Sequence record: MN013077.1
Source of the DNA: Klebsiella phage vB_KaeM_KaOmega
Strand: one strand, 5' to 3'
DNA: 64,000 nt
Positions within the stretch are counted from its first letter, which is position 1; each line of letters opens with the position of its first letter. Made by a program: the position numbers and the translations under genes. Shown here piece by piece: positions 3,132 through 54,398 of the stretch. The notes below the pieces were generated by a model. It saw only the letters and a list, made by a program, of their open reading frames with translations, searched no databases and was not told the origin of the DNA.

Positions 3132-3592
3132 TGAACCTTACAGATCTGAAGTATTACGACGAATTGACCCCAGCGGCGCAAGCTGAAGCCCGGCGCAACG
3201 TTGCCGCTAGTGTGCAGACTCACCACGGGCGGGAAATCGGAAAGGCGTTTTTTAAATTCCAGCGGGACCCAAACAAGGCGATCAATGACCCGCTGCACAT
3301 CCGCCGGATCATCAATGGCGGCGAAGCGTGGCGCAAGATCCGCCAGGAGGGCGACGCCTATCTAATCCGCTTTATCCGGTCCAATAAAGTGATCTTTACT
3401 GATTGCGGGGCGTATGTAGCGTATGTGGACGCCTTCACAATGTTTATTGATGGGTTGGAATACATACCCACAGCCGAACAGCAAAAGACTCTTAGAACGC
3501 CTTACATCGACGTTAACGGGCGGGGGCCTGCGTTTCATGATTGGCTATACCGTATGCACCACAAAATAAAGTTTTTCATGATCCGGGGTTGA
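3131..3592 (+). CDS. hypothetical early protein (153 aa)
   Basis: ORF track; ATGA overlap with the upstream gene. Confidence 0.6.
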   Translation: MNLTDLKYYDELTPAAQAEARRNVAASVQTHHGREIGKAFFKFQRDPNKAINDPLHIRRIINGGEAWRKIRQEGDAYLIRFIRSNKVIFTDCGAYVAYVDAFTMFIDGLEYIPTAEQQKTLRTPYIDVNGRGPAFHDWLYRMHHKIKFFMIRG

Positions 3593-3617
3593 CACCCGGC
3601 GGAATAGGGCCGATAAT
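3589..3617 (+). promoter_or_regulatory. early promoter TTGACA-N17-GATAAT, followed in the 5'UTR by the conserved hairpin TAGGGCGGGGAATGGTCCCCGG
   Basis: seen in sequence. Confidence 0.55.
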
Positions 3618-3670
3618 GTCTCTCATAGGGCGGGGAATGGTCCCCGGCCCAATGAACTGGAGTCAGTACA

Positions 3671-3922
3671 ATGGAAATCAAACACGTAATTTCTGCAAAC
3701 GTCGCCGTTTTAGGTTCTGTAAGTGAAACCCGTGTGAGTCTGGCGAAATGGTGCGCCGCTCAAACTTTCGGGAGTTACGGCGAAAAGGTAACAGAGGTTA
3801 AGCGCTTGCTTTCCTTTGGCAACGTGGGCCGCAAGTTGTTAACAGAGGATATCGCCCGCCGGGTTGAGATCCATTATTCACTTGCTCAAATCATCGTAAA
3901 AGAGATCGAAAGCGCAATTTAA
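3671..3922 (+). CDS. hypothetical early protein (83 aa)
   Basis: ORF track. Confidence 0.6.
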   Translation: MEIKHVISANVAVLGSVSETRVSLAKWCAAQTFGSYGEKVTEVKRLLSFGNVGRKLLTEDIARRVEIHYSLAQIIVKEIESAI

Positions 3923-4560: not shown

Positions 4561-4757
4561 TCGACTTATCCGGCGTGAAGCCTGGCGATCTGGTCTGGGC
4601 CTTTGACTATCCGACCGATCCACCGTATGACGTTTGCAACGCTTGCAAACTGGAGTATTTGAACACCGGGAAAAATGAGTACCAGTTACGCCGCCCGGAT
4701 AACGGCGTGATCGTTTACTTTCGCTACATCGCACCAATTGAAGGGGCCAAACCATGA
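4557..4757 (+). CDS. hypothetical early protein (66 aa)
   Basis: ORF track; ATGA overlap. Confidence 0.55.
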   Translation: MIDLSGVKPGDLVWAFDYPTDPPYDVCNACKLEYLNTGKNEYQLRRPDNGVIVYFRYIAPIEGAKP

Positions 4758-5068
4758 TCGCCATTACGCCAACCGTTTTAGATTGGTATCGCCAACAGAT
4801 CGCGCCGCCGCTGGCTATCTTCAAACAGGCAGAAAGCAAACAGCGCCGGATCTCCATTCATGAGATCATCACCCTTAACGCCGGGGCGGTCCCGTTCAAT
4901 CCTGGGGCGGGTCGCAACATGGGCAACACGTTAGCGCTTTTGAGTTTACGCCGGAAACGGTCCGCCCTTACCTTGGATTCACTCCGCATGATGGGAGATC
5001 CGCACCGGGTAACAGGTCGCCGGATCGCCAGGGCCTGGGAACGGGCAAACGGTCGAAAGGTTGTATAA
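4754..5068 (+). CDS. hypothetical early protein (104 aa)
   Basis: ORF track; ATGA overlap. Confidence 0.55.
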   Translation: MIAITPTVLDWYRQQIAPPLAIFKQAESKQRRISIHEIITLNAGAVPFNPGAGRNMGNTLALLSLRRKRSALTLDSLRMMGDPHRVTGRRIARAWERANGRKVV

Positions 5069-5487
5069 AATAACAGTGTTTACAGGGGTTGAATTGTTCG
5101 CCCCTTTTTGTTATCCTTTTTTCATGCGATGGCACCTGATGCAGGGGGAGACAAACACCGGACCTGCCCGCTATTCAGGAAGGCGGACCGGACCTGGGTC
5201 TCTCCGGATAGATGAGAATGGTTATCATTCCCAATCAAATCAAATACATACTTTCAAACCGTTGTCAAATTTATTTCGTACTCCTGTATAAATGTACATG
5301 GTTCTAAAACGTCCTGAATCGCGTTTTAAGCCGTTTTCCCCTTACCCGGTATCCTACATCATAAAAATATAGATCTCTCGAAATCGGACTTTCGCACTTT
5401 TTGCCCTTGCAAACGTAAAAATTTTATGTTAGACCTGAAGGGCTGAAAGCCGGGTTTACGTTGACAAAACTTTACAATTCTCCCTAT

Positions 5488-5516
5488 TGCATCGATCCGC
5501 CATTGTGCTATTATTT
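5488..5516 (+). promoter_or_regulatory. putative promoter TTGCAT-N17-ATTATT ahead of the 5568 gene; its 5'UTR contains a TAGGGCGG... hairpin variant
   Basis: seen in sequence; weaker match. Confidence 0.4.
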
Positions 5517-5567
5517 ATCACGTAGGGCGGCAATGACGCGACGGCCCGCAGAGAGGAGACAGTAAAA

Positions 5568-5939
5568 ATGAACCTGACCAACTTCAACCGCTACTACATC
5601 CGCGACGAACAGGCAAACGCTTTTGGGTACGATCGTTCGTTCGAAATGCAACAGCACGTAGGCGGCGCAAAGTTACACGTTGAAACTGTTACCTTTGAAA
5701 ACTATTTTATGGCGACCTTTGACAATGGTTTACAGATCTCCATTGAGTACAAAGGCGGCGTGATGACTCTCGCCACTGAGGATAAATTCCGCAAAAAAGA
5801 TCTTTTGAATCATCCAGGTTTTGCCAGCAACAAAGAATTATTGATTAAAATTTATATCCGCTGGGTAGTGGGCCGCATCGCAACAGAAGAGCAGATCGCC
5901 GCCCTGGTGGATCTGGCTCTGAATCTGGATTTAAATTAA
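5568..5939 (+). CDS. hypothetical early protein (123 aa)
   Basis: ORF track; strong RBS-like sequence GAGAGGAGA. Confidence 0.65.
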   Translation: MNLTNFNRYYIRDEQANAFGYDRSFEMQQHVGGAKLHVETVTFENYFMATFDNGLQISIEYKGGVMTLATEDKFRKKDLLNHPGFASNKELLIKIYIRWVVGRIATEEQIAALVDLALNLDLN

Positions 5940-5942
5940 TAG

Positions 5943-5971
5943 TTGACAAGGGGCCGGAAAGGCCCCATAAT
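5943..5971 (+). promoter_or_regulatory. early promoter TTGACA-N17-CATAAT with spacer hairpin GGGGCCGGAAAGGCCCC
   Basis: seen in sequence; identical to the promoter at 535. Confidence 0.6.
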
Positions 5972-6016
5972 ACCCACTCAAGCAACAAACCACTAAGAAC
6001 ACTGGAGACCGTAAAA

Positions 6017-6331
6017 ATGACCAAATCTAAATTTTTCGAAATGCTGGATCGCTACCTGTCAAGCCATAACGAGTGGGCCAAACTTGGCAACGGTTACGAC
6101 TCATACAAGGCCGAACAGTTAAAACCTTATGTTTTCCATGAGGACCCGGCGAACCTGGAGAAATGGAAAGCTAAAGATCCGTCCTATCCTTGGACCGCTC
6201 ACGCTTCAGGTTTTACCCTGGCTGATTGTTGGCATGTTGAGGTAATGCAACATAAAACCGCTGAAGCGGCAGAAAAGCAAAACAAAATTTTCACCCGCTG
6301 GATCGCAGACTATCAAAAGGCCCGCGCTTAA
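6017..6331 (+). CDS. hypothetical early protein (104 aa)
   Basis: ORF track; CTGGAGACCGTAAAAATG leader. Confidence 0.6.
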   Translation: MTKSKFFEMLDRYLSSHNEWAKLGNGYDSYKAEQLKPYVFHEDPANLEKWKAKDPSYPWTAHASGFTLADCWHVEVMQHKTAEAAEKQNKIFTRWIADYQKARA

Positions 6332-6576
6332 TGTCCCGGCTTTTTAAAATCAATCTTCCATTGTGGGCCGCTTTAGCGGTCCTCATTGCCTTTTTTGGCG
6401 ATACGGTCAACAATTGGATTTTGTCCGCTGTACTTGGACCGGATCAACTGGTCACAACATTTTTAAACGCTTTCGGCGCTACACTGGCAACGGCCCGCCT
6501 TGCCTATCGTGGCAAATCAATAAACCGTTATGATCTGGCGCTATCACTGCCCGCCCTGGTTACCTGCCTAAACTGA
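6331..6576 (+). CDS. small membrane protein (81 aa, two predicted TM helices)
   Basis: ORF track; hydrophobic sequence; ATGT overlap. Confidence 0.55.
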   Translation: MSRLFKINLPLWAALAVLIAFFGDTVNNWILSAVLGPDQLVTTFLNAFGATLATARLAYRGKSINRYDLALSLPALVTCLN

Positions 6577-6577
6577 A

Positions 6578-6607
6578 GAGGCCCGCCACCCCGGCGGGCT
6601 TTTTGTT
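6578..6607 (+). terminator. rho-independent terminator GCCCGCCACCCCGGCGGGC followed by TTTTGTT
   Basis: GC hairpin plus T tract. Confidence 0.7.
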
Positions 6608-6634
6608 GCATCCAGATCCGTGACCTGTTATAAT
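6606..6634 (+). promoter_or_regulatory. promoter TTGCAT-N17-TATAAT
   Basis: seen in sequence. Confidence 0.55.
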
Positions 6635-6680
6635 ACTTACTCACCCGGCAACCGGGCCAAACAACTGGAGACCGTAAAAC

Positions 6681-6881
6681 ATGACAACCGCCAACCGCCT
6701 GATCGATGTTCTGAATGATGCAAAGGCAAACCGTTTAGCCGTGGCAATCAAAGAAGAGGCAAACGGGCTGATCCTGGCAAGTGTTACCGATGGCTGTTAC
6801 ACTGAATCATTCCATGCTGATACACTGGAGTATCTCGCCCACAGATTAGAAATGATCGTTGACGATTGGCGGCTATTGTGA
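6681..6881 (+). CDS. hypothetical protein (66 aa)
   Basis: ORF track; CTGGAGACCGTAAAACATG leader. Confidence 0.6.
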   Translation: MTTANRLIDVLNDAKANRLAVAIKEEANGLILASVTDGCYTESFHADTLEYLAHRLEMIVDDWRLL

Positions 6882-6898
6882 TCCGACCAAACCAAACA

Positions 6899-6925
6899 GG
6901 CCCGGCATAGTCCGGGCTTTTTAGT
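6899..6925 (+). terminator. rho-independent terminator CCCGGCATAGTCCGGG followed by CTTTTTAG
   Basis: hairpin plus T tract; ends the early + strand block. Confidence 0.7.
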
Positions 6926-7099
6926 GCCTGCAATCCGGCCCGGTATTGGTCCGACTCCCCCAGCCTATAAGCCCTTATCATTTAACATTGTGGAAATCAA
7001 CATCTAATTTTATTCATAAAAACATGCATAATTGAATACAGGAGGCGCTAACCCACTAGCCAGGGTTGAGAGTAGCGGGCCGCATAGGGCCTTACAGCG

Positions 7100-7560
7100 C
7101 GTTTTAGCCCCTATTGACTTCTATCTGCAAACGTGTATCAGGCCACAACTGACTAAATCACCTTTTCTTTACATAACTTGACACTATTTATTCATTTATC
7201 TGCATAATGCGAGAATGATTATCATTTACAATCAATAACTTAACTTTTTATTGACTTCTGACAAAACACGGTTTTACGTTCCCACGGATCAAGGGAGGGC
7301 GCGCCGGAGGCGCGACCAATAGAAAACAGGTAACGAACCCTCCCCCGTTGCTAGCTCGCAACGGTTTAGGCTTACGTTCCCACGGTCAAGGGATGACCGC
7401 TATCACCTGTTTTCTATTGGTCATTTGTGATTGAAAATCACGTAAAGTCAAGTTTTATTTTACAAATGAGAGTTATTCTTATCTGCATAAAGATTGGTTT
7501 TATCTGCATAAATACGTAAACAGGCGGACCCGGTACGGGCCGGAGGGCCTGAGAGGAGAG
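7100..7560. repeat. iteron and palindrome cluster: TTATCTGCATAA x3 (7197, 7482, 7505); ATTGACTTCT x2; direct repeat ACGTTCCCACGG(A)TCAAGGGA x2, each partnered with one arm of the inverted repeat CCAATAGAAAACAGGT/ACCTGTTTTCTATTGG; palindromes GTGATTGAAAATCAC and CGTTGCTAGCTCGCAACG
   Basis: seen directly in sequence; non-coding. Confidence 0.6.
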
Positions 7561-7669
7561 GGCCTTTATTGCTCACAAAACAGCCGAAAGCGTAGCTTTT
7601 GCCTGGCAAAATTCACTCTTCGTGTCAAGCGAAAAATAATTTTTTTTCTTTTTTCGTAAACGATAATGA

Positions 7670-7810
7670 TTCTCATCCGAGAACCATTCTCAAAGGGCGA
7701 ATGCGAGTCATTCTCATTGGCATTCCACAACGTGAGTGAGACTCATTCTCATCTAGGCCACGGCTGGCGGGCCTCTCCACGTGTTGGGAATGATTATCAT
7801 TATCCCGAGT
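7670..7810. repeat. array of about five related sites (ATGATTCTCAT, CCATTCTCA, GTCATTCTCAT, CTCATTCTCAT, AATGATTATCATT); the perfect 13-bp palindrome AATGATTATCATT recurs at 7212 and a variant at 5222
   Basis: seen directly in sequence. Confidence 0.55.
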
Positions 7811-8410
7811 GCGTATAAGGTGTATTATGTTAAATGGGGAAATGTTGGGGGAGGCACACCACAGCCCGGCTGTCAATAAGAGAAGTGTAAAGATGGGCAA
7901 GATGGTAGACATTTTGTGACTTTGATCGCGTAAAGTTAGGGGCTACCGATCGGGATTCAAGATTGGGAGGGAGAGGCTAAGTAATTGATTATTAAGGATA
8001 TTTGGGAAAAATAACAGGTGCCCCTCCCCACCCCTGTTCGCCATGCCTGGCAGCTATATCCATACGCTGAGATATTTTTCTGGTTTCTGGGCAAGAAGGG
8101 CCACCCCTGATCGCGTTCTAAAAATTTTGGCGGGAGGGTATTTTGACATAAAAAGAGGGTACACCCAACGGGAGCGCCTCTTCAGGCGTCCCTTGATATT
8201 TGGGCAATGTGGGAATACAGACGGGTACGTCTCTGTGGGAACAGGTATACCCGGCGGGAGAGGGCCTCCCGGACGGGGTATGGCGCTCGCAGAGTTATCA
8301 ACAGGACAGAACACACGTTCGCCTCTTCAGGCAGTGGGTTAGACTCAAGTGGGACTCTTTAGGCCCTGTCAGGTCTACCAGTGTGGGAAACAAAATCCCG
8401 GAGGGAAGAT

Positions 8411-8434
8411 ACAAAAAAGGCCCGCAAAGGGCCT
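8411..8434 (-). terminator. minus-strand rho-independent terminator (GGCCCTTTGCGGGCC + TTTTTT on the minus strand)
   Basis: hairpin 8419-8433 preceded by an A tract on the plus strand; immediately downstream of the 8442 gene end. Confidence 0.65.
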
Positions 8435-8441
8435 ATGTGGA

Positions 8442-8771
8442 TCACCGGATAGGGAAGTGGGCTTCCTTCAGGTTGCAATTGACGTGTCTGCGGATAGCCA
8501 TCCACCCGATGTGACCAAATCCGTTCAGTTCTTCCTCGAACTGCTTCAGCTTCGCCCGGAGGACTGGGTACTCAACCCCAACCTGACCGGAAGATGTTCT
8601 GGTCATACATATAGTGTGGCACAGATCCATTAGGGCCTCGGACCTGCGCTTATTGTTCCGGGTAACCTGACGAATGGCGTTGGCCTTCCTCAGTTCTTTG
8701 ATATCTTTGTTCCAACGGTGGGCAATGGCAGGTCTACAAGGGCAGGTTTGACTCTTCAGGTGTGGTTTCAT
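8442..8771 (-). CDS. hypothetical basic Cys/His-rich protein (109 aa), monocistronic
   Basis: ORF track; RBS-like sequence AGAGGAACACCT; own promoter 8807-8835 and terminator 8411-8434. Confidence 0.55.
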   Translation of the reverse strand: MKPHLKSQTCPCRPAIAHRWNKDIKELRKANAIRQVTRNNKRRSEALMDLCHTICMTRTSSGQVGVEYPVLRAKLKQFEEELNGFGHIGWMAIRRHVNCNLKEAHFPIR

Positions 8772-8806
8772 AGGTGTTCCTCTTTGGCATGTTTGGAATA
8801 TGTGGG

Positions 8807-8835
8807 AAGTATACTGGTGTTTTGGGAAGGAGTCA
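8807..8835 (-). promoter_or_regulatory. minus-strand promoter TTGACT-N17-TATACT directly downstream of the hairpin GGGCCGAAAGGCCC; transcript would begin in a TTCCCACA motif
   Basis: seen in sequence. Confidence 0.5.
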
Positions 8836-8852
8836 AGGGCCTTTCGGCCCTT

Positions 8853-9143
8853 TTATACGATTTCGAAGGATTTGCGAAACAGGTTCATGTGGTCATTGAG
8901 GAAGACCCATGTGGCACTGTCTCCCTGCTCATAATCGTCGTTGTACACAACCACGATATCATATGGTGGGAATTTGTCAGCATATGTGGTGGTCCGGAAC
9001 CTGTAGGCCTGCCCAACCTGGAATCCATGCCCGTTGTGCTCAAGGCACCGGGCAACCCCGAACTCCGGAACAGGGAAGTATAACTGCGTCCATGTGGGTC
9101 GTGGCGGGCGCGTAGGGACGTTCCAACGATATGCCTTAGACAT
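8853..9143 (-). CDS. hypothetical protein (96 aa)
   Basis: ORF track. Confidence 0.55.
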   Translation of the reverse strand: MSKAYRWNVPTRPPRPTWTQLYFPVPEFGVARCLEHNGHGFQVGQAYRFRTTTYADKFPPYDIVVVYNDDYEQGDSATWVFLNDHMNLFRKSFEIV

Positions 9144-9348
9144 TCACTTTCTCCAGCCAAAAGCCGCTCAGATCGGGCCGCAGGGGGTTAATCGGACCAT
9201 CATCACGGATGATGTATTCCGGATTTCCATCGTTGTCGTAGAGCATACGTGCGCCCTCGTCAACGTAGATGTACCGAAGCTCTTTCTGGGTATACCCATA
9301 CTGCGGGTACTGTTCCACAACCTTGACTTCCCGTGATGCATTAGTCAT
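9136..9348 (-). CDS. hypothetical protein (70 aa)
   Basis: ORF track; RBS-like sequence GAGGAGGTAGC. Confidence 0.6.
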   Translation of the reverse strand: MTNASREVKVVEQYPQYGYTQKELRYIYVDEGARMLYDNDGNPEYIIRDDGPINPLRPDLSGFWLEKVNV

Positions 9349-9357
9349 GCTACCTCC

Positions 9358-9558
9358 TCAGTAAATGGTCTTTGCCGCTTCCATTCCGGCGTCAGTGATC
9401 TTCCAGAATGTCCCCTGAATATCTTTACAATACCCCAGCTTTTCAAGGCCCCGCATAGTTCTTGTCGGGGGCTTATCATACACAACCGTCAAATATCCCG
9501 GTCCGTACTGATGTGCAGTCCACAACCTCAGTAACCAATCTTTCTGTGATGGTGTCAT
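9358..9558 (-). CDS. hypothetical protein (66 aa)
   Basis: ORF track 9358..9573; ATG at 9558 is ATGA-coupled. Confidence 0.55.
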   Translation of the reverse strand: MTPSQKDWLLRLWTAHQYGPGYLTVVYDKPPTRTMRGLEKLGYCKDIQGTFWKITDAGMEAAKTIY

Positions 9559-9893
9559 GACGAAGCCTTCCACCCGGCGTTCCAGCCGAAGTCATAGTCA
9601 GTGACGGGTTTTGCGTTCGGTCCTTTATATCCGCCCGGCGGGCAGTCGCCCTCGAAGTGCTTCAAAGCATCAACGTAGCCAACATACCAGTCTCGTGGCT
9701 TATCGTTTGTCGGATACCATGCCTCACGCAAGACGAATTGACGCCACAGTTCCTGGATAGTGGCTACGTGTTCACGGTGGTAATATCCCGAGTTGTAGAG
9801 GTTATGCTCTCCATTATACAGCGCGTCGAAGACGCGCTTCTCCAGCACTACCTCTTCGTCGCTGTCGGGGAGAATTGGCTCGATATTATCCAC
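9555..9893 (-). CDS. hypothetical protein (112 aa), GTG start
   Basis: ORF track; TAAGGAG RBS-like sequence 5 nt upstream of the GTG. Confidence 0.55.
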   Translation of the reverse strand: MDNIEPILPDSDEEVVLEKRVFDALYNGEHNLYNSGYYHREHVATIQELWRQFVLREAWYPTNDKPRDWYVGYVDALKHFEGDCPPGGYKGPNAKPVTDYDFGWNAGWKASS

Positions 9894-9902
9894 AGAAACT
9901 CC

Positions 9903-10178
9903 TTAGTTATCAACAGGTTCGCCACTATGGCGGGTTGTTGGAATCAGCACCGCTTGTTGACCTACGCCTACCACAATTTGGAAACGTGGATCACGCCGTG
10001 GGTCTGGTTTCGCCAACATTTCCCGCAACTCGTCCGGGTTAGCTTCCCGGTACGTGTAGTTCAAGTCGGTTATGATGCAGAACGTTTCGGCAATCTCTCT
10101 TGCTATTTCCTTGTCCGGGCAAACTGCAAGCAGCTTTCCTGACGGGTCCAGTATGCTGTGTGCTGCGAGATCCATCAC
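9903..10178 (-). CDS. hypothetical protein (91 aa)
   Basis: ORF track. Confidence 0.55.
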   Translation of the reverse strand: MMDLAAHSILDPSGKLLAVCPDKEIAREIAETFCIITDLNYTYREANPDELREMLAKPDPRRDPRFQIVVGVGQQAVLIPTTRHSGEPVDN

Positions 10179-10366
10179 AAAACCTCCGGGGGTGTGTAGT
10201 CACACTCCAGCAGGGCCAGAAGCTGATTCAGCTTCAGGTGCCCGGTGATCACGTGCTTCTCTTCCGACAGGTCTTCTTTTGAAGTCAGGAAGACGACGGT
10301 AATCGGCAGCGAACGCTCACAAGACTGATAGAAGTGAGTCAGAACTTTGTCATTTCTCATCAGCAA
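10175..10366 (-). CDS. hypothetical protein (63 aa)
   Basis: ORF track; ATGA overlap. Confidence 0.5.
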   Translation of the reverse strand: MLMRNDKVLTHFYQSCERSLPITVVFLTSKEDLSEEKHVITGHLKLNQLLALLECDYTPPEVL

Positions 10367-53662: not shown

Positions 53663-54026
53663 TCTATAACCCTCATACGGTTGTCTCGTTTCGATGTGTG
53701 CATTCTATGATCCAATGATCCTCTTGTCAATACTTTAAATTTAAAATTTTTCATGTAAGATCTATATAAAGATCCTAAAGATCAATAGAAATCTTCTATT
53801 GTTTTCTTGTTTTTAATAATTATTATGAATGAATATGAATAATAATTATAAGATCAATAATTTATGAGTGTAACGAATAAATTATAAGATTAATAAAACC
53901 GTAGCCCGGAGGGCGAGCGTAGCGAGGTTTATAGATTCTATTATTACTTCGTGTGTCTTTCGCGGCTACATGGTTGACAACCGATTTGGTTCGTGAAACA
54001 CTGAGCAGGGTTTCAAAGGAGGGTGT
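53663..54026. promoter_or_regulatory. AT-rich divergent control region with clustered GATC sites and repeated (A)TAAGATCAATA(A/G) motifs
   Basis: seen in sequence; candidate divergent promoters and/or replication origin. Confidence 0.5.
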
Positions 54027-54398
54027 GTGAAGGATTTTGTTGTTCCAGAGGGTTCTTTTGTAAGCCTCCCTACTCTGTGGGGCTTCGACTTGCCTGCCGA
54101 AGACTTCAAGAGGATGTTCTTGTTACATTTCCGATTCAAGTATTTCGCAGAGCAAGCGTTTCAGAGTGGTGAAGATGTAAGGCGCTGTTACTACGAGTCG
54201 CAGGAAACTCTGTGCGGCTTGTTTGGTATGTCTGAAACTTCAAGGTCAAAAGTCAGCAAGTTCCTCAAGCGGATGGAGGAGGCGGGGTATGTCTCAATCA
54301 TTCGTGAGAAAGTAATGCTTTATGGTTCATTCAAACCAAGGCATTACATTGTGGTTAACGACCCTGCACTTTTGAAAAGATATAACCTGGCCCCTTGA
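54027..54398 (+). CDS. winged-helix (HTH) DNA-binding protein (123 aa), GTG start
   Basis: ORF track; AAGGAGG RBS-like sequence; HTH-like LCGLFGMSETSRSKVSKFLKRMEEAGYV. Confidence 0.6.
   Translation: MKDFVVPEGSFVSLPTLWGFDLPAEDFKRMFLLHFRFKYFAEQAFQSGEDVRRCYYESQETLCGLFGMSETSRSKVSKFLKRMEEAGYVSIIREKVMLYGSFKPRHYIVVNDPALLKRYNLAP

Follow-up and report, generated by a model that had tools for sequence, protein, structure and literature searches.

Fur, which is the ferric uptake regulator and iron repressor of enterobacterial hosts, binds operators such as those of ryhB, fhuA, entC/fepB and the aerobactin iucA promoter, which have a 19-bp consensus core, dyads of the 6-1-6 or 7-1-7 type and units overlapping with a 6-bp offset, and which can form multi-site clusters covering up to about 140 bp. 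Shiga-toxin phages carry a Fur box at stx1. The only documented cases of phage DNA under the control of host Fur are such cargo genes of temperate phages, namely stx1 and the sit operon. In the lambdoid coliphages, the Fur box of sitABCD lies on temperate phage DNA (PMC6969025). Here we analysed a stretch of 64,000 nucleotides from Klebsiella phage vB_KaeM_KaOmega (record MN013077.1; the window in what follows), and found that a set of short palindromic dyads in it is, judged by sequence, not distinguishable from the binding sites of host Fur. We think it probable that these dyads are Fur boxes for the host regulator, carried by a virulent rV5-like phage that uses the host RNA polymerase. Fur boxes are a known kind of site; conserved clusters of them in the early and non-coding region of virulent phages are not reported in the literature searched, nor did we find there any report of Fur control in Vequintavirinae or T5-like phages.

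By sequence match of the region, the window belongs to the genus Certrevirus (Vequintavirinae; rV5-like lytic myoviruses of ~150 kb), with CR9 as the nearest relative; the matching relatives are Cronobacter, Enterobacter and Pectobacterium phages of this genus. Certreviruses have no RNA polymerase of their own, and their sigma-70-like early promoters are concentrated in a region of short open reading frames (ORFs) (PMC7344957). In the window, the rightward short ORFs stop at 6881 and the leftward genes end at 8442, leaving between them a gene-free block of ~1.5 kb. A comparable gene-free block is present in all relatives, the rV5 version measuring 2.6 kb.

The original prediction, a note made on this DNA from its letters alone, had proposed a perfect 13-bp palindrome, a one-mismatch copy of it and a tandem array of related sites as the targets of a dimeric DNA-binding protein. 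The motifs are there, at coordinates that deviate by 2-10 bases from those given. The palindrome AATGATTATCATT occurs exactly at 7214-7226 and 7789-7801 (it had been placed at 7212 and 7791), and the one-mismatch copy AATGGTTATCATT at 5217-5229 (not at 5222). The related CATTCTCAT elements of the array are real and span about 7662-7751 rather than 7676-7770; their exact positions are 7666-7676 for ATGATTCTCAT, 7683-7691 for CCATTCTCA, 7706-7716 for GTCATTCTCAT and 7741-7751 for CTCATTCTCAT. The non-coding gap around the 5217 copy, put at roughly 500 bp, indeed measures 499 bp, between the ORFs at 4754-5068 and 5568-5939.

Within the 64-kb window, the 13-mer was found 10 times with up to two mismatches, against 1.5 occurrences expected, and none of 100 shuffles reached 10. 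An unbiased repeat search returned a unit longer than the 13-mer, (G)AGAATGrTTATCATT, and the array elements and dispersed dyads turned out to be one motif, GAGAAT-N-ATTMTC, read on either strand, with palindromic units of the 6-1-6 / 7-1-7 type. The extended unit GAGAATNNTTMTC, with at most one mismatch, is present 11 times (1.9 expected), all but one within 5214-7798, and a 15-bp weight matrix gave 11 positions of at least 12.9 bits, all within 5213-7805, the next best position scoring 11.7 bits. Dyad 1 (5213-5233; 19-bp frame 5214-5232), in the 499-bp gap upstream of a Gp30.7-like gene, consists of overlapping 15-bp units at 5213-5227 (20.2 bits) and 5219-5233 (15.6 bits), offset by 6 bp. 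Dyad 2 (7210-7230; frame 7211-7229) likewise joins units at 7210-7224 (21.1 bits) and 7216-7230 (12.9 bits), while the weak dyad 3 (7467-7481) is a single unit of 13.1 bits. A conserved A/T run at 7626-7655 precedes the array, whose four single units occupy 7661-7751 (7661-7675, 21.1 bits; 7678-7692, 18.2; 7702-7716, 16.7; 7737-7751, 20.1). The last member of the array, dyad 4 (7785-7805; frame 7786-7804), is again a double unit (7785-7799, 21.2 bits; 7791-7805, 15.9). Start-to-start spacing within the array is irregular, at 17, 24, 35 and 48 bp.

These sites have the sequence, the 6-1-6 / 7-1-7 dyads and the 6-bp overlapping-unit architecture of enterobacterial Fur operators. The 13-mer corresponds to positions 4-16, the central 13 bp, of GATAATGATAATCATTATC, which we take to be the classical 19-bp enterobacterial Fur-box consensus and which was also the majority sequence of the E. 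coli operators extracted here. Dyad 1 (5214) matches this consensus at 15 of 19 positions, dyad 2 (7211) at 16 and dyad 4 (7786), the best in the window, at 17; apart from these three dispersed dyads, no position in the 64 kb reaches 15 matches (0.22 expected), and the E. coli operators themselves have 12-16. The strong units are paired exactly 6 bp apart (5213/5219, 7210/7216 and 7785/7791), and overlapping units in Fur clusters are known to be offset by 3 or 6 bp (PMC2189734). The flanks of the dyads are GCAwAT / ATTTGCA, like those of the fepA operator, and correspond to the outer hexamer found in natural operators.

We compared phage and host sites in both directions, with matrices that we built ourselves, the Fur one from E. 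coli DNA. In the forward test, a 19-bp matrix made only from nine operators in six E. coli regions was run on the window, and its four best positions were 7211 (21.2 bits), 7786 (20.0), 5214 (16.0) and 7656, the first site of the array (14.8). The phage sites thus score like the strongest E. coli operators, which range from 10.5 to 21.4 bits on their own matrix. In the reverse test, a 15-bp matrix made only from 16 phage sites was run on three 50-kb segments of E. coli K-12. Ranks one and two went to the fepB-entC intergenic region, rank one also to the ryhB promoter, rank two to the fhuA promoter and rank three to the site upstream of feoA, and fepD-entS and fepA-fes were matched as well; the top E. 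coli operators scored 16.7-19.3 bits, the weaker ones 9-12. Between map and tff-rpsB, E. coli K-12 has a further dyad that is almost perfect, TGAGAATCATTCTGA (189583-189597; 18.4 bits); this intergenic site scores above the fhuA operator and is not, to our knowledge, a Fur target.

The dyads are conserved. Every site, all array members included, is kept at the homologous position in CR9, CR8, CR3, P7_Pc, F1M1E, POP15 and phiTE. The block holds long runs that are invariant across relatives, and the dyads sit in invariant stretches; the core of dyad 4 is invariant in all relatives. Dyad 3 is stronger in relatives (for example, ACGAATTATTCTC in F1M1E, CR8 and phiTE), and relatives have extra copies, one of which, in phiTE, reaches 18/19 to the Fur consensus. 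The counterpart of dyad 1 is found also in a Salmonella phage, where it is duplicated. In three more distant members of Vequintavirinae, namely SSBI34, Klebsiella phage KP12 and a Salmonella phage, many dyads lie in DNA that can no longer be aligned with the window, and new copies are present there as well as in rV5. As a side observation, the 142-kb Salmonella phage PQ002170.1, labelled Demerecviridae, shares the dyad-1 region and the neighbouring genes with Vequintavirinae, and its taxonomy line therefore looks wrong.

The original prediction had proposed a genome-wide scan as a check; in the complete genome of the relative CR3, such a scan gave 17 sites that score 15 bits or more, where 0.7 are expected. 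Of these, 14 lie within 13 kb (80.15-93.2 kb), made up of the early short-ORF region and the gene-free block. Among the 14 is a second tandem array, outside the part that corresponds to the window, of four dyads with a regular 29-bp period (80152-80262). This array lies within a 960-bp gap between CR3_127 and CR3_128 (region 79930-80262), and ahead of it come three repeats of ~63 bp that read GGTCTCGATCG...CGTATTCTC. The rV5 genome has 5 strong sites against 0.8 expected; its gene-free block holds three sites of 14-17 bits, just one of them among the 5 strong ones. Conservation and clustering in the early region together indicate that the motif is under selection and is tied to the part of the genome read by the unmodified host polymerase. 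The dyads, being palindromic, conserved, clustered and under selection across the subfamily, accordingly behave as sites for a dimeric DNA-binding protein at several loci, as had been suggested. The further proposal that they are operators also stands, with the change that the protein is most likely not a phage repressor but a host protein, given the match to Fur in both matrix directions.

Arrays of the same dyad recur outside this subfamily. An exact-pattern scan of viral contigs matched at least 120 contigs, and among the matches listed 20 of 120 contigs have dyad arrays of 3-8 strong sites; with a composition-matched permuted palindrome as control, 55 contigs matched and 2 had three or more sites. 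Apart from two weak protein matches and the dyads as such, nothing in the fetched flanks of the array contigs resembled Certrevirus. Arrays in uncultivated contigs lie at 5710-5943 (contig L019), 2141-2219 and 4242-4364 (L034), 8076-8313 (L104), 10144-10259 (L039) and 1126-1186 (L121); that of L104 is intergenic, ~1 kb from the gene for the terminase large subunit. In these contigs, which are unrelated to this phage, the arrays are tight and consist of near-perfect Fur boxes at periods of 23, 29, 30-35 and 39 bp.

One array belongs to T5-like phages (chee24, 3500-3690). In T5 itself (AY692264), dyads at 9554, 9658 (23.7 bits) and 9693/9699 form ~35-bp repeats within the annotated injection-stop signal (9554-9713). 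The repeats come right after DnaA boxes, and their run spans the calculated shear point of first-step transfer (~9618). An analysis by Davison lists the T5 injection-stop repeats and makes no mention of Fur (bioRxiv 10.1101/866236). The injection-stop signal, in the left terminal repeat, resembles the gene-free block in being a large, highly conserved region without genes that has repeats on the same dyad; unlike the block, with which it shares no sequence homology, it has paired DnaA boxes, and T5, unlike the circularly permuted Certreviruses, has fixed ends and uses a two-step mode of DNA injection. Since arrays are common to such different phages, the ligand of the dyads is most simply a host protein.

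How Fur might act at these sites can be sketched from their positions. In iron-replete cells, metal-loaded Fur dimers would occupy the sites; each of the 19-bp sites (5214, 7211 and 7786) would take two dimers on opposite faces, and the array (7661-7805) would be loaded cooperatively. Two of the sites coincide with elements that resemble promoters. The best score of our own sigma-70 model in the block (11.9) was given by a plus-strand element, TTGACA (7178-7183)-N19-CATAAT (7203-7208), whose predicted start falls within dyad 2. The stretch 7178-7208 is invariant in 8 Certrevirus genomes and mostly kept in SSBI34; as a promoter it is a prediction, with an unusual 19-nt spacer. A second predicted plus-strand element, read from the sequence, TTTACA (7458-7463)-N-CATAAA (7485-7490), spans 7458-7490 and has dyad 3 (7467-7481) in its spacer. 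Promoter scans were noisy (7 sites against 4.8 in shuffles), and these assignments are therefore tentative. Fur occupancy could shut both elements within the terminator-bounded block, at the start in one case (dyad 2) and in the spacer in the other (dyad 3).

The stretch at 7277-7422, downstream of dyad 2, is a structured element that is conserved. Two hairpins (7277-7299 and 7301-7313) come first in it; an outer stem of 18 bp then pairs 7314-7331 with 7405-7422 around a covarying hairpin at 7347-7364. Of the 50 pairs in the consensus fold, 8 show compensatory double changes. Two invariant ACGTTCCCACGG(A)TCAAGGGA copies in it each form a hairpin, and another small covarying hairpin lies at 7431-7447. 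The element has no match in Rfam and is present in Certrevirus and SSBI34 only. SSBI34 has a dyad at the same relative place as dyad 2, upstream of the element, and retains the order of promoter-like block, dyad, structured element and array. We see in the element a candidate for a non-coding RNA, new among phages, or for a DNA structure, and the control may be directed at it. Dyad 2 lies just after the -10-like hexamer, much as the Fur box of ryhB lies 8-22 bp upstream of its gene, and with such geometry the structured element would be expressed only once Fur loses its metal. At the array and dyad 1, Fur could load cooperatively, act as a roadblock or simply be held. As an unavoidable by-product, each replicating copy of the genome, with its roughly 9 to 17 strong sites, would titrate Fur in the way that the Fur titration assay exploits, and so derepress the host iron-starvation regulon late in infection. 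The role of the sites would then be cis repression, a sink for Fur, or both.

The decamer ATCTGCATAA occurs on the plus strand in three exact copies, at 7198-7207, 7481-7490 and 7502-7511, in this block only and each adjoining a dyad. We considered ATCTGCATAA / TGCATA as a promoter signature linked to the dyads and discarded it, as there are only the three local copies and no consistent -35 across phages. It might contribute hexamers of the -10 kind, or else the outermost hexamer in an extended Fur site; the better reading is a Fur box of three hexamers with this motif as the outer one.

Several observations count against host Fur as the ligand and against its control of promoters. All of the support is sequence evidence. 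The phage consensus favours GAGAAT / ATTCTC over GATAAT / ATTATC, so that a related yet distinct specificity is conceivable; ATTCTC is also common among the E. coli operators recovered. Just two of about nine sites overlap a promoter-like element, the promoters are weakly predicted and have 19-nt spacers, and dyad 1 and the array coincide with no convincing promoter. No iron-related gene was found downstream of the sites. The structured element folds equally well on the other strand, and it is a candidate also in its strand, its ends and its RNA nature. Unlike enterobacterial Fur operators, with which they share the consensus core, the dyad types, the 6-bp overlap, the multi-site clusters and two-way recognition by matrices, the phage sites are borne by a virulent phage, have no iron-uptake or iron-storage gene downstream, lie mostly off recognizable promoters, are biased to GAGAAT / ATTCTC and are predicted from sequence. 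With the Fur boxes of sitABCD and stx1 they have in common a host Fur operator on phage DNA, through which phage-borne expression follows iron status; those, however, are single operators of prophage cargo genes, whereas here the sites, about nine in the window and 17 in the CR3 genome, belong to early and non-coding DNA of a lytic phage, and no cargo gene goes with them.

In a different account of their selection, the sites primarily sequester Fur on replicating phage DNA, and promoter control is secondary or absent. Host iron uptake and RyhB would then be derepressed, and the iron-dependent ribonucleotide reductases of the phage supplied. Most sites, including the array, dyad 1 and CR3 80152-80262, overlap no convincing promoter; the sites are numerous and strong, 17 in each CR3 genome; and unrelated phages, too, have arrays away from promoters, for instance in the injection-stop region of T5 and near terminase genes. 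The relatives encode class I ribonucleotide reductases, and rV5 the anaerobic type too. Ribonucleotide reductases require iron for activity. A cell has roughly 5,000 to 10,000 Fur molecules, and in the Fur titration assay (FURTA) one Fur box on a multicopy plasmid suffices to titrate Fur. The sites are, however, restricted to one 13-kb early region and not spread over the genome, rV5 has just 5 strong ones, and titration demands a high copy number, hence could act only late. Their confinement to the early region, with some exactly over promoter-like elements or start codons, suggests action in cis, and we regard sequestration as the primary selected function as unlikely.

We judge it improbable, too, that the dyads serve a phage-encoded dimeric protein of Fur-like specificity (a regulator, an initiator or a partition protein), the block being an origin, a centromere or an operator. 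Clustered repeats beside an A/T-rich stretch in non-coding DNA are indeed what origin iterons and the sopC and parS centromeres look like, and here the A/T run at 7626-7655 adjoins the array in a large, conserved gene-free block between convergent genes. The regular 29-bp period of the CR3 array at 80.1 kb, the DnaA boxes beside the dyads of T5-like phages and the systematic GAGAAT, instead of GATAAT, of the phage consensus point the same way, and a binder could hide among the early ORFs, most of which have no known function. An A/T run alone, however, is not diagnostic of an unwinding element. Origin iterons would be expected as regular, helically phased direct repeats, whereas the units in the window are palindromes at irregular spacing, and the block (6882-8441) contains no DnaA box. 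No match to the ParA/ParB families was found among the ORFs scanned on either side of the block, so the ParB-like or replication-initiator protein once proposed as the binder has no recognized gene among them, and the small flanking ORFs scanned contain no DNA-binding domain. With no such gene recognized, irregular spacing and no DnaA box, the origin or centromere reading has little support.

Nor did the two candidates that had been named as binders fit. The basic protein encoded at 8442-8771 has no recognizable DNA-binding domain and matches nothing. The protein at 54027, the sole winged-helix, initiator-like protein (123 aa, with weak similarity to 'replication initiation protein'), has its own, different repeats directly upstream of its gene. 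That TAAGATCAATA family has 7 matches against 0.7 expected, with a cluster of four at 53756-53895 and no member in the dyad block. A phage protein as the ligand would further have to account for a motif that cannot be told from Fur operators with either matrix, while tblastn with E. coli Fur detected no homolog in any Vequintavirinae record. It would also require several unrelated phage proteins to converge on Fur specificity, because the same arrays occur in phages without protein similarity in the fetched flanks, bar the two weak matches.

That the dyads have no function, being A/T-rich composition of the -10 kind or chance, remnants of duplicated gene starts (ATGAGAATGATT...) or coding sequence, appears very improbable. 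GAGAAT and GATAAT do resemble -10 hexamers, three of the copies in relatives start with ATG, two overlap real start codons, and a 50-aa ORF (7666-7818) covers the array. Composition and chance are nevertheless at odds with counts that, in the window, CR3 and rV5, far exceed those of shuffles, and with the position of the dyads in invariant stretches across relatives. We rejected the array ORF as coding, as its codons are not biased at the third position (13:10:8) and two relatives carry stops in its frame. The idea that the dyads are the starts of paralogous small genes ('MRMI...', copies beginning ATGAGAATG) was also dropped: ORFs starting on the motif share no similarity past 5 codons, and most are just 7 to 13 codons long.

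If Fur binds the dyads, a strictly lytic phage would either read the iron status of its host or manipulate it through Fur titration. An extension of this, which we put forward as a tentative and rather doubtful possibility, is that capture of the host iron repressor by Fur-box arrays is a recurrent and hitherto unremarked device of virulent phages of enterobacteria, found in T5-like phages, Vequintavirinae and numerous uncultivated phages. Capture might work as a sponge that brings about an iron-starvation state in the infected cell and provides iron for the phage ribonucleotide reductases; alternatively, Fur bound to phage DNA might play a structural part or form a roadblock. In the latter case the dyad repeats within the long-enigmatic injection-stop signal of T5 would become a candidate, open to direct test, for what is at work in that signal. 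The dyad there bears on a 50-year-old question and can be tested cheaply. Since these phages find use, or have been proposed, in biocontrol and therapy where iron is scarce (in plant tissue and infant formula, in the gut and in serum), an infection that depends on iron would have practical consequences. Behind dyad 2, the structured element might represent a non-coding RNA, new among phages, that is controlled in the manner of ryhB.

The gene-free block is bounded on both sides by likely terminators. At its left boundary, a plus-strand hairpin, GCCCGGCATAGTCCGGGC, followed by TTTTT (6900-6922) is the likely terminator of the rightward early genes; its stem was also returned by a terminator scan, and P7_Pc and phiTE have a terminator annotated at the corresponding place. 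At the right boundary, the scan placed a minus-strand terminator of the leftward gene set at 8408-8434 (stem 8418-8434, then a T run). A search of 4900-9000 against Rfam returned nothing relevant, only a sub-threshold Trp-leader match at 6861-6925. The record boundary of PBES02 had raised the idea of a physical genome end inside the block. We rejected it on the ground that phiTE DNA is circularly permuted (PMC3475682), which makes record ends arbitrary. The pseudo-ToxI locus of phiTE lies elsewhere, at 106.7 kb in phiTE.

The ORF that directly follows dyad 1 (5568-5939) encodes a clear homolog of T4 Gp30.7 (Pfam PF06919, E = 2e-43), a protein whose function is not known and which is otherwise typical of T4-like phages. 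It could not be used as a handle for the region in rV5, its matches being mostly from T4-like phages, and rV5 was scanned whole instead. The winged-helix gene mentioned above is preceded directly by four direct repeats, TAAGATC(A/T)ATA, at 53756, 53777, 53849 and 53885. They lie in a divergent intergenic region of 40% GC (53663-54395), together with an 11-bp inverted repeat (53816 / 53839) among them, and this region is a more conventional origin-plus-initiator layout than the dyad block. To the right of the block, TTCCCACA occurs in four minus-strand copies (8208, 8234, 8382 and 8801); with 6 found in the whole window against 3.3 expected, it is not enriched and we set it aside as a motif. 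One of its copies directly follows the -10 of a TTGACT-17-TATACT promoter of the gene at 8771-8442.

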